DNA of 1,762 nt from Escherichia phage ECO95 1-6-1: the sequence record OR845698.1. One strand, given 5' to 3'. The notes beneath the pieces were generated by a model. The model did not search any database. It was given only the letters and a program-made list of their open reading frames with translations, and was not told the DNA's origin. Positions within the stretch are counted from its first letter, which is position 1, and every line of letters begins with the position of its first letter. Positions 1,204-1,762 of the stretch are shown here, piece after piece. The position numbers were made by a program, and so were the translations under genes.

Positions 1204-1226
1204 CGGAATTACTGGATCAATCCACA
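1141..1226 (-). ncRNA. oop: Putative oop-like antisense RNA (antisense to the cII 3' end), ending at the to-like terminator
   Basis: A terminator is present on the minus strand inside cII. A candidate minus-strand -10 (CATAAT, reverse complement of 1233..1238) would place the start near 1225, about 22 bp past the cII stop, as in lambda. The -35 is poor. The 5' end and promoter are inferred, not observed. Confidence 0.45.
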
Positions 1227-1235
1227 GGAGTAATT

Positions 1236-1397
1236 ATGCCAAAACGTCGTAAGAAATACCAGGAAAAAGAAGAGATTCGACACCCTGATTCACCTGAGGG
1301 ATTAGTGGTAGCCGCAGCAAATAACAGGGCGTTCGCAGAGCGCCTTGTTGGTGTTTACAGACTAGCCAAAGCAGGAGTGAAACATGGGCGTCGTTAA
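1236..1397 (+). CDS. Hypothetical small basic protein (53 aa; MPKRRKKYQEKEEIRHPDSPEGLVVAAANNRAFAERLVGVYRLAKAGVKHGRR), absent from the supplied ORF track
   Basis: Found by manual translation: ATG at 1236 preceded by a strong SD (AGGAG at 1226..1230, 5-nt spacing), stop TAA at 1395..1397. It fills the otherwise non-coding 180-bp cII-O gap and overlaps the O start by 14 nt in a different frame. No recognisable family; coding status is uncertain. Confidence 0.4.
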   Translation: MPKRRKKYQEKEEIRHPDSPEGLVVAAANNRAFAERLVGVYRLAKAGVKHGRR

Positions 1398-1762
1398 GTT
1401 AGCAGACTACAGGCCGTCAGAGCCGGTCGTGGAGCGTAATGTGGCAGATCTCGATGATGGTTACGCCAGACTATCAAATATGCTGCTTGAGGCTTATTCA
1501 GGCGCAGATCTGACCAAGCGACATTTTAAAGTGCTGCTTGCCATTCTGCGTAAAACCTATGGGTGGAATAAACCAATGGACAGAATCACCGATTCTCAAC
1601 TTAGCGAGATTACAAAGTTACCCGTCAAACGGTGCAATGAGGCCAAGTTAGAACTCGTCAGAATGAATATTATCAAGCAGCAAGGCGGCATGTTTGGACC
1701 AAATAAAAACATCTCAGAATGGCGCATCCCTCAAAATGAGGGAGTATCCCTCAAAACAGGGG
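1384..1762 (+). CDS. O: Replication initiator protein O (lambda O-type, N-terminal iteron-binding domain), partial: 3' end beyond the window
   Basis: ATG at 1384 preceded by SD AGGAG (1373..1377) and an in-frame TGA at 1378..1380. Manual translation gives MGVVKLADYRPSEPVVERNVADLDDGYARLSNMLLEAYSGADLTKRHFKVLLAILRKTYGWNKPMDRITDSQLSEITKLPVKRCNEAKLELVRMNIIKQQGGMFGPNKNISEWRIPQNEG..., which from residue 17 on is nearly identical to lambda O as recalled. The open frame continues to the window edge, which is why it is missing from the ORF track. Confidence 0.92.
   Translation, partial: MGVVKLADYRPSEPVVERNVADLDDGYARLSNMLLEAYSGADLTKRHFKVLLAILRKTYGWNKPMDRITDSQLSEITKLPVKRCNEAKLELVRMNIIKQQGGMFGPNKNISEWRIPQNEGVSLKTG
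1726..1762. repeat. Origin iterons (ori-lambda-type O-binding repeats): ATCCCTCAAAATGAGGGAG and TATCCCTCAAAACAGGG (second cut by the window end)
   Basis: Two tandem copies of the TCCCTCAAAA..GGG motif, each internally palindromic (TCCCTCA / TGAGGGA), lie about 340 bp into the O gene. This matches the position and sequence of lambda ori iterons inside O. Confidence 0.8.

Follow-up and report, generated by a model that had tools for sequence, protein, structure and literature searches.

Gene organization of the window

The window, i.e. the whole stretch of 1,762 bases that was analysed, runs from the immunity to the replication genes of a lambdoid phage or prophage. It contains a cI-type repressor gene on the minus strand (34..450) and, on the plus strand, a Cro-type gene (555..779), a cII-like activator gene (910..1203; Pfam Phage_CII, E = 8.9e-10), a 53-codon ORF of the HK97 gp53 family (1236..1397) and a gene for an O-type replication initiator (Pfam Phage_rep_O), which begins at 1384 and exits at the window end. 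Over positions 36..1762 the window is 99.8% identical to the Salmonella phage contig S.Kent 1-2-1.

At the left end, the repressor ORF stops at 138 aa, just beyond the Ala-Gly (LSAGNGS) region, while the S.Kent repressor has 237 aa including the C-terminal domain. Positions 1..35 have no match to S.Kent, and a small indel is present near 40..45. Viral contigs held no exact match to 1..35, and E. coli genomes no match. The short repressor together with the mismatch over 1..35 suggests that the repressor is truncated or that a further junction lies where the window begins. For the protein encoded at the Cro position (555..779), Pfam YdaS_toxin (E = 2e-17) was a better match than either P22_Cro or lambda Cro.

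The O reading frame could be followed to codon 126, where the window ends; the C-terminal domain, by which the P-type helicase loader is recruited, would lie beyond it. Its product matched Pfam PF04492 Phage_rep_O with E = 5.3e-36 over residues 20-113, which form the origin-binding domain, and in all Pfam-positive initiators tested this domain begins at residue 19-20.

The cII-O junction compared with lambda

The cII and O genes are separated by 180 nt in the window and by 32 nt in lambda (cII end at 38653, O start at 38686), which confirms the gap reported in a preliminary description of this DNA. The same description had taken the whole of 1204..1430 as a non-lambda insert. A base-by-base comparison placed the left breakpoint at 1243|1244 (lambda 38693|38694) and the right one at 1430|1431 (lambda 38738|38739). 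The non-lambda character is therefore upheld for 1244..1430 but not for 1204..1243, where 33 of 40 bases are identical to lambda 38654..38693, covering the Shine-Dalgarno sequence, the ATG and five further bases. It is only over these 40 bases that 1204..1430 is collinear with lambda, and the left edge had been set off by the same length. The switch to near-lambda sequence, previously given as approximate, falls exactly at 1431, and from there 1431..1762 differs from lambda 38739..39070 by 12 mismatches in 332 nt (96.4% identity), 7 of them located in the iterons.

The non-lambda stretch (1244..1430, 187 nt, plus strand) takes the place of 45 lambda bases (38694..38738) that have no counterpart in the window. 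Smith-Waterman alignment of the two segments against 1000 shuffles gave no similarity (p = 0.48). As unrelated stretches of 187 and 45 bases replace each other between two sharp ends, the event is a substitution, not the simple insertion implied by the word insert. The possibility that the 45 bases of lambda are a deletion remnant of a gp53 segment was rejected, their similarity to it being not above that of the shuffles.

As had been proposed, the right joint lies within the 5' end of O, at codon 16/17 and just upstream of the Phage_rep_O domain. The lambda O N-terminus given in the preliminary description proved correct, lambda O starting with MTNTAKILNFGRGNFAGQ-ERNVADL and the window O, differently, with MGVVKLADYRPSEPVV, while the continuation ERNVADLDDGYARL is common to both. 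The window leader, codons 1-16 (MGVVKLADYRPSEPVV, 1384..1431, plus strand), takes the place of lambda O residues 1-18. Lambda and the window are alike in the cII 3' end, the OOP terminator, the spacer, the Shine-Dalgarno sequence and the ATG, and again in the O origin-binding domain and the iterons, which are 96% identical. Lambda, however, is without the small ORF, and its O begins at the conserved ATG with 18 different N-terminal residues. This lambda O ATG is retained in the window, where it has become the start codon of the small ORF.

The oop island and the predicted antisense RNA

The body of the window cII gene is not of lambda type, but its final 60 nt or so (1144..1203) match lambda, and the alignment is good from 1144. 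Together with the cII-O spacer, this part makes up a 100-bp lambda-conserved island (1144..1243) that holds the cII 3' end, a predicted OOP-like RNA with its terminator, the pO -10, a ribosome binding site and an ATG. Since the island is flanked on both sides by non-lambda DNA, namely the cII body and the small gene, a second mosaic joint lies within cII near 1140. The spacer itself (1204..1243, plus strand, with AGGAG at 1226..1230 and ATG at 1236) is the 'boundary sequence 5' (bsq5), and the Sf6 record carries the annotation 'bsq5; boundary sequence' at the aligned position. The left joint is located at the conserved oop/pO boundary sequence, annotated equivalently in Sf6, which bears out the earlier view that such module boundaries are typical of lambdoid phages. 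Hayes et al. 2012 (PMC3349717) compared 23 lambdoid phages and described 33 bp of conserved oop/pO sequence, which reach from the OOP 5' end over the pO -10 hexamer to the ATG behind it; they also reported a lambda/P22 hybrid that leaves lambda at 38694. This is the same base as the left joint of the window.

On the minus strand, the pO -10 hexamer CATAAT is found at 1238..1233, with a TG in front of it at 1241..1240. By homology to lambda OOP (38675->38599), an OOP-like antisense RNA is predicted at 1146..1225 (minus strand), and a terminator scan found its hairpin at 1179..1149 (minus strand), with a 12-pair stem followed by a T run. For the minus strand of 1229..1147 the computed fold consists of two hairpins (-33.1 kcal/mol, z = -4.9); an RNA of about 80 nt running from the hexamer to the terminator would thus resemble lambda OOP. 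A -10-like hexamer by the ATG of the small ORF and a downstream terminator are present in nearly all of the 24 loci sampled (described below). A simple consensus promoter scan at pO called no promoter and found no acceptable -35. Given that the pO -35 lies within the replaced DNA and that no promoter was called, the OOP-like RNA of the window element is a putative transcript. The pO -35 region of lambda differs from that of the window.

The Rfam scan gave nothing above threshold in the window. Two sub-threshold matches, AgvB anti-sRNA (1147..1203, minus strand, 19.6 against 56 bits, mostly the OOP-like terminator) and the RpsF leader (1472..1537, minus strand, 25 against 37 bits), are probably chance.

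A conserved 53-codon gene overlapping the O start

The non-lambda segment had been noted to carry its own ORF, and this ORF (1236..1397, 53 aa) turned out to be a real, conserved gene. Its product matched PHROG 1331 (phrog_1331) with E = 1.1e-36, residues 1-53 aligning with profile positions 1-53 of 53, and is 96-98% identical to the HK97, ES18 and Sf6 proteins. The annotated members of the family are HK97 gp53, ES18 gp58, Sf6 gp42, epsilon34 gp49 and ST104 ORF27.

The conservation of the gene was followed in 24 loci. These come in part from phage records and in part from the genomes of 17 different Enterobacterales, with Edwardsiella, Yokenella, Chimaeribacter, Serratia, Rahnella and Brenneria among the genera and E. 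coli also represented. The ORF is intact in all 24, with a length of 52-55 aa and a protein identity down to 57%, and its differences in length are whole codons. The median pairwise dN/dS is 0.14 (range 0.04-0.38, 158 pairs), as calculated from pairs with dS > 0.2 and with the dual-coded end left out. By these sequence comparisons the small ORF is a protein-coding gene under purifying selection. Two of the contigs with the cassette carry unexpected taxon labels, 'Bacillota bacterium MAG' (L009) and 'Chryseobacterium sp.' (L012); as both hold the enterobacterial cassette, with 98% and 83% protein identity, the labels are probably due to mis-binning or contamination.

No family in Pfam or NCBIfam matched the small protein, and a function was recorded neither in PHROGs, Pfam or NCBIfam nor in the literature searched, in which PMC3349717 alone dealt with gp53/orf48, the gene being there an unnamed 'orf'. 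When 1.84 billion representative proteins were searched with a profile, no more than 23 clusters came up, none of them longer than 84 aa or linked to a known domain, and at the sequence level the family is a narrow orphan. In the AlphaFold2 model, which is of modest confidence (mean pLDDT 68), residues 1-20 are disordered and highly charged and residues 21-49 form one long helix. The small protein is basic and, by this model, largely helical.

In the O frame, an in-frame TGA at 1378..1380 leaves the ATG at 1384 as the sole possible O start. It is preceded by its own Shine-Dalgarno sequence, AGGAG (1373..1377, plus strand), inside the 3' end of the small gene. The small ORF ends with the stop codon at 1395..1397, so that 14 nt (ATGGGCGTCGTTAA, 1384..1397, plus strand) are dual-coded. 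The overlap measures 14 nt in 22 of the 24 loci and 17 nt in the other two. The O Shine-Dalgarno sequence is AGGAG or GGGGG, purine-rich and conserved, 6-8 nt upstream of the start in all loci. A fusion of the small ORF with O by frameshift was rejected, since a slippery heptamer is missing from the overlap and O starts from a conserved Shine-Dalgarno sequence and ATG of its own, right after the TGA. Translational coupling by way of a hidden O ribosome site found no support: a single-sequence fold pairs the Shine-Dalgarno sequence weakly (z = -1.9), and the 20-locus alignment is without conserved structure. For annotation, the 53-codon gene is to be kept as real and the ATG at 1236 is not to be labelled as the O start.

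A leader that accompanies the small gene

The first ten initiator residues, MGVVKLADYR or close variants, associate with the small gene and not with the initiator body. The leader was found on at least three unlike bodies, four kinds being tabulated: a lambda-type body (Pfam Phage_rep_O) in the window, ES18 and epsilon34; a P22 gp18-type body (Pfam Phage_rep_O) in HK97; an HK022 gp54-type body, with no Pfam match, in Sf6 and the Cronobacter phage ENT47670; and a further body type, also with no Pfam match, in the Enterobacter phage ENT1. Codons 6-10 of the leader, which lie outside the overlap, vary synonymously (GCA/GCT/GCG, GAC/GAT, AGG/AGA/CGG) while LADYR is kept, which argues that the leader peptide or its mRNA is constrained.

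HK97 presents the closest comparison for the cassette. Its gene 53 region has 98% DNA identity to window positions 1205..1419, the small protein differs at 1 of 53 residues, and the gene occupies the same slot after cII/oop with the same 14-nt overlap with the initiator and the same MGVVKLADYR leader. Past the leader, however, the HK97 initiator body is of the P22 gp18 type and that of the window is of the lambda type. Since HK97 departs from the window after 1419, the right edge of the cassette would lie at about 1414..1419. The bases 1420..1430 (SEPVV) are part of the O lineage common to ES18 and epsilon34, whose lambda-type bodies are like that of the window (97% and 94% identity).

In P22 the same slot holds a 48-aa ORF, which begins at the conserved ATG that follows oop and runs into the 5' end of gene 18, the initiator gene. 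The overlap is of 8 nt against 14 in the window, and the gene 18 leader, MSNLATVTPIK, differs. P22 orf48 is handled as the counterpart 'orf' in PMC3349717, but homology between it and the gp53 family was rejected, hhalign giving a probability of 0.1% (E = 0.57).

Distribution and previous descriptions

The gp53-type segment is common. It was present in 187 phage records with 95-100% identity, HK97, ES18, Sf6, epsilon34 and many Stx phages being among them, and out of 5426 complete E. coli genomes 577 (about 10%) had it. The lambda-type joint was found in 145 phage records.

The cII-oop-'orf'-O-P layout was set out in PMC3349717, which states that "lambda is naturally missing the orf" and gives the HK97 gp53 homologue as an alternative orf. 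With this work (Hayes 2012) and the annotations of HK97, Sf6 and ES18, the layout is already described and the joint is an ordinary lambdoid mosaic joint. It represents a textbook case of lambdoid modules being exchanged at a linker that is conserved, with little import beyond correct annotation.

Origin of the junction and alternative explanations

We read the window as carrying one allele, the gp53 type, of the lambdoid cII-oop-[small orf]-O junction, brought about by recombination, with a probability of about 0.88. The junction has at least three interchangeable forms. Besides the gp53 type there are the type with P22 orf48 and that of lambda, in which an orf is missing. The left joint would have arisen by homologous exchange in the conserved oop island and the right joint by a non-homologous or short-homology join in the unstructured N-terminal tail of O. 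The right joint would be tolerated because this tail is outside the origin-binding domain, and with Phage_rep_O starting at residue 19-20, hybrids joined in the tail should stay functional. The small gene and the MGVVKLADYR leader would be transferred as one unit onto different initiators. As for the small protein, its most likely role, proposed with low confidence, would be that of a trans-acting accessory of the early-right operon for replication or lysis-lysogeny, made together with O.

A different role would be one in cis only, the small ORF serving as a translational coupler or upstream ORF: ribosomes that have finished it would start again at the O ATG lying in the overlap, and the peptide would have no role. 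Such a function is suggested by the stop/start overlap, which is essentially fixed (14 nt in 22/24 loci), and by the use of the ribosome site and ATG that serve O in lambda. We nevertheless consider it unlikely: O has its own strong Shine-Dalgarno sequence in all loci, RNAalifold on 20 loci found no conserved structure hiding it (-4.2 kcal/mol, with 7 pairs elsewhere), and the dN/dS of 0.14 applies to the peptide outside the overlap, for which a pure coupler has no need. That the ORF is spurious, 1244..1383 being non-coding regulatory DNA such as pO upstream elements or an extended antisense RNA, is highly improbable. Its 5' end does overlap the pO -10/-35 region on the opposite strand and its sole known family is an unannotated PHROG, but no Rfam family reached threshold, the frame is intact in the 24 loci down to 57% protein identity, the indels are all multiples of three, and synonymous changes are near saturation with the amino acids retained.

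Concerning the history of the segment, one could imagine that it was inserted recently, as a moron, into an ancestor resembling lambda, in place of being an alternative allele or ancestral state, the flanks being nearly lambda-identical and the short joint occurring in lambda and in the 145 phage records mentioned above. This account seems to us quite improbable. The insertion is not a clean one, since the 45 bases of lambda have no counterpart, and the gp53 cassette carries neither a promoter nor a terminator of its own. The cassette accompanies cII and O genes of many types and reaches into genera as distant as Serratia, Rahnella and Brenneria, and an unrelated orf fills the same slot in P22. 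The PxxEVVE motif before the O domain is present in P22, HK97 and the window, lambda being the only one of the four from which it is absent; the sequences suggest, without proving it, that the short O N-terminus of lambda is the derived state. Speaking of an insert presumes a polarity. In PMC3349717 it is lambda that is without the orf, and of the two layouts the gp53 type has the wider distribution. The sequences are compatible with either direction, the orf having been lost on the way to lambda or gained in other lineages.

Possible consequences for O stability and for pO-ori spacing

The window-type leaders have the consensus [G/S/A]-V-[V/A]-[K/R]-[L/I], which resembles ClpX N-motif-1 as reportedly defined by Flynn et al. 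2003. A speculative proposal, to which we give low odds, is that the small gene and the MGVVKLADYR leader constitute a portable 'initiator control cassette', with the leader as a ClpX N-degron and the 53-aa protein as a tuner. If so, the leader would be the equivalent of the lambda O tag, keeping any fused initiator unstable, and the co-translated 53-aa protein would tune the level or activity of the initiator, or the OOP/cII antisense control. In lambda, residues 1-12 of O are the ClpX N-motif-1 degron (PMC7804408, PMC12723719). These degron residues are absent from the window O, and the exchange thus swaps the lambda O degron for a different leader, conserved across unrelated initiators.

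The exchange also displaces pO with respect to the origin. Lambda pO lies 142 bp closer to ori: despite the lambda-type ori of the window, the distance from the pO -10 to iteron 1 is 142 bp longer than in lambda (490 vs 348 nt when counted from the ATG). According to Olszewski et al. 2014 (PMC3985674), lambda plasmids are already crippled when 6-10 bp are inserted between pO and ori-lambda. ES18 and epsilon34, isolated phages with complete deposited genomes, have the same layout as the window together with a lambda-type ori. As a corollary of the cassette proposal, with the same low odds, the viability of these phages with a pO displaced by 142 bp would mean that a strict pO-ori spacing rule is not general. 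The displacement offers a natural test of the reported spacing dependence.

In the window, comparison with lambda, ES18 and S.Kent located ori iteron 1 at 1726..1743 (plus strand; TCCCTCAAAATGAGGGA at 1727..1743), followed by the first part of iteron 2 at about 1746..1762 (plus strand); the S.Kent record has four iterons. The second iteron of the window (TCCCTCAAAACAGGGG) resembles iteron 4 of lambda and not iteron 2, as is also the case in S.Kent and epsilon34, while ES18 has the lambda order.
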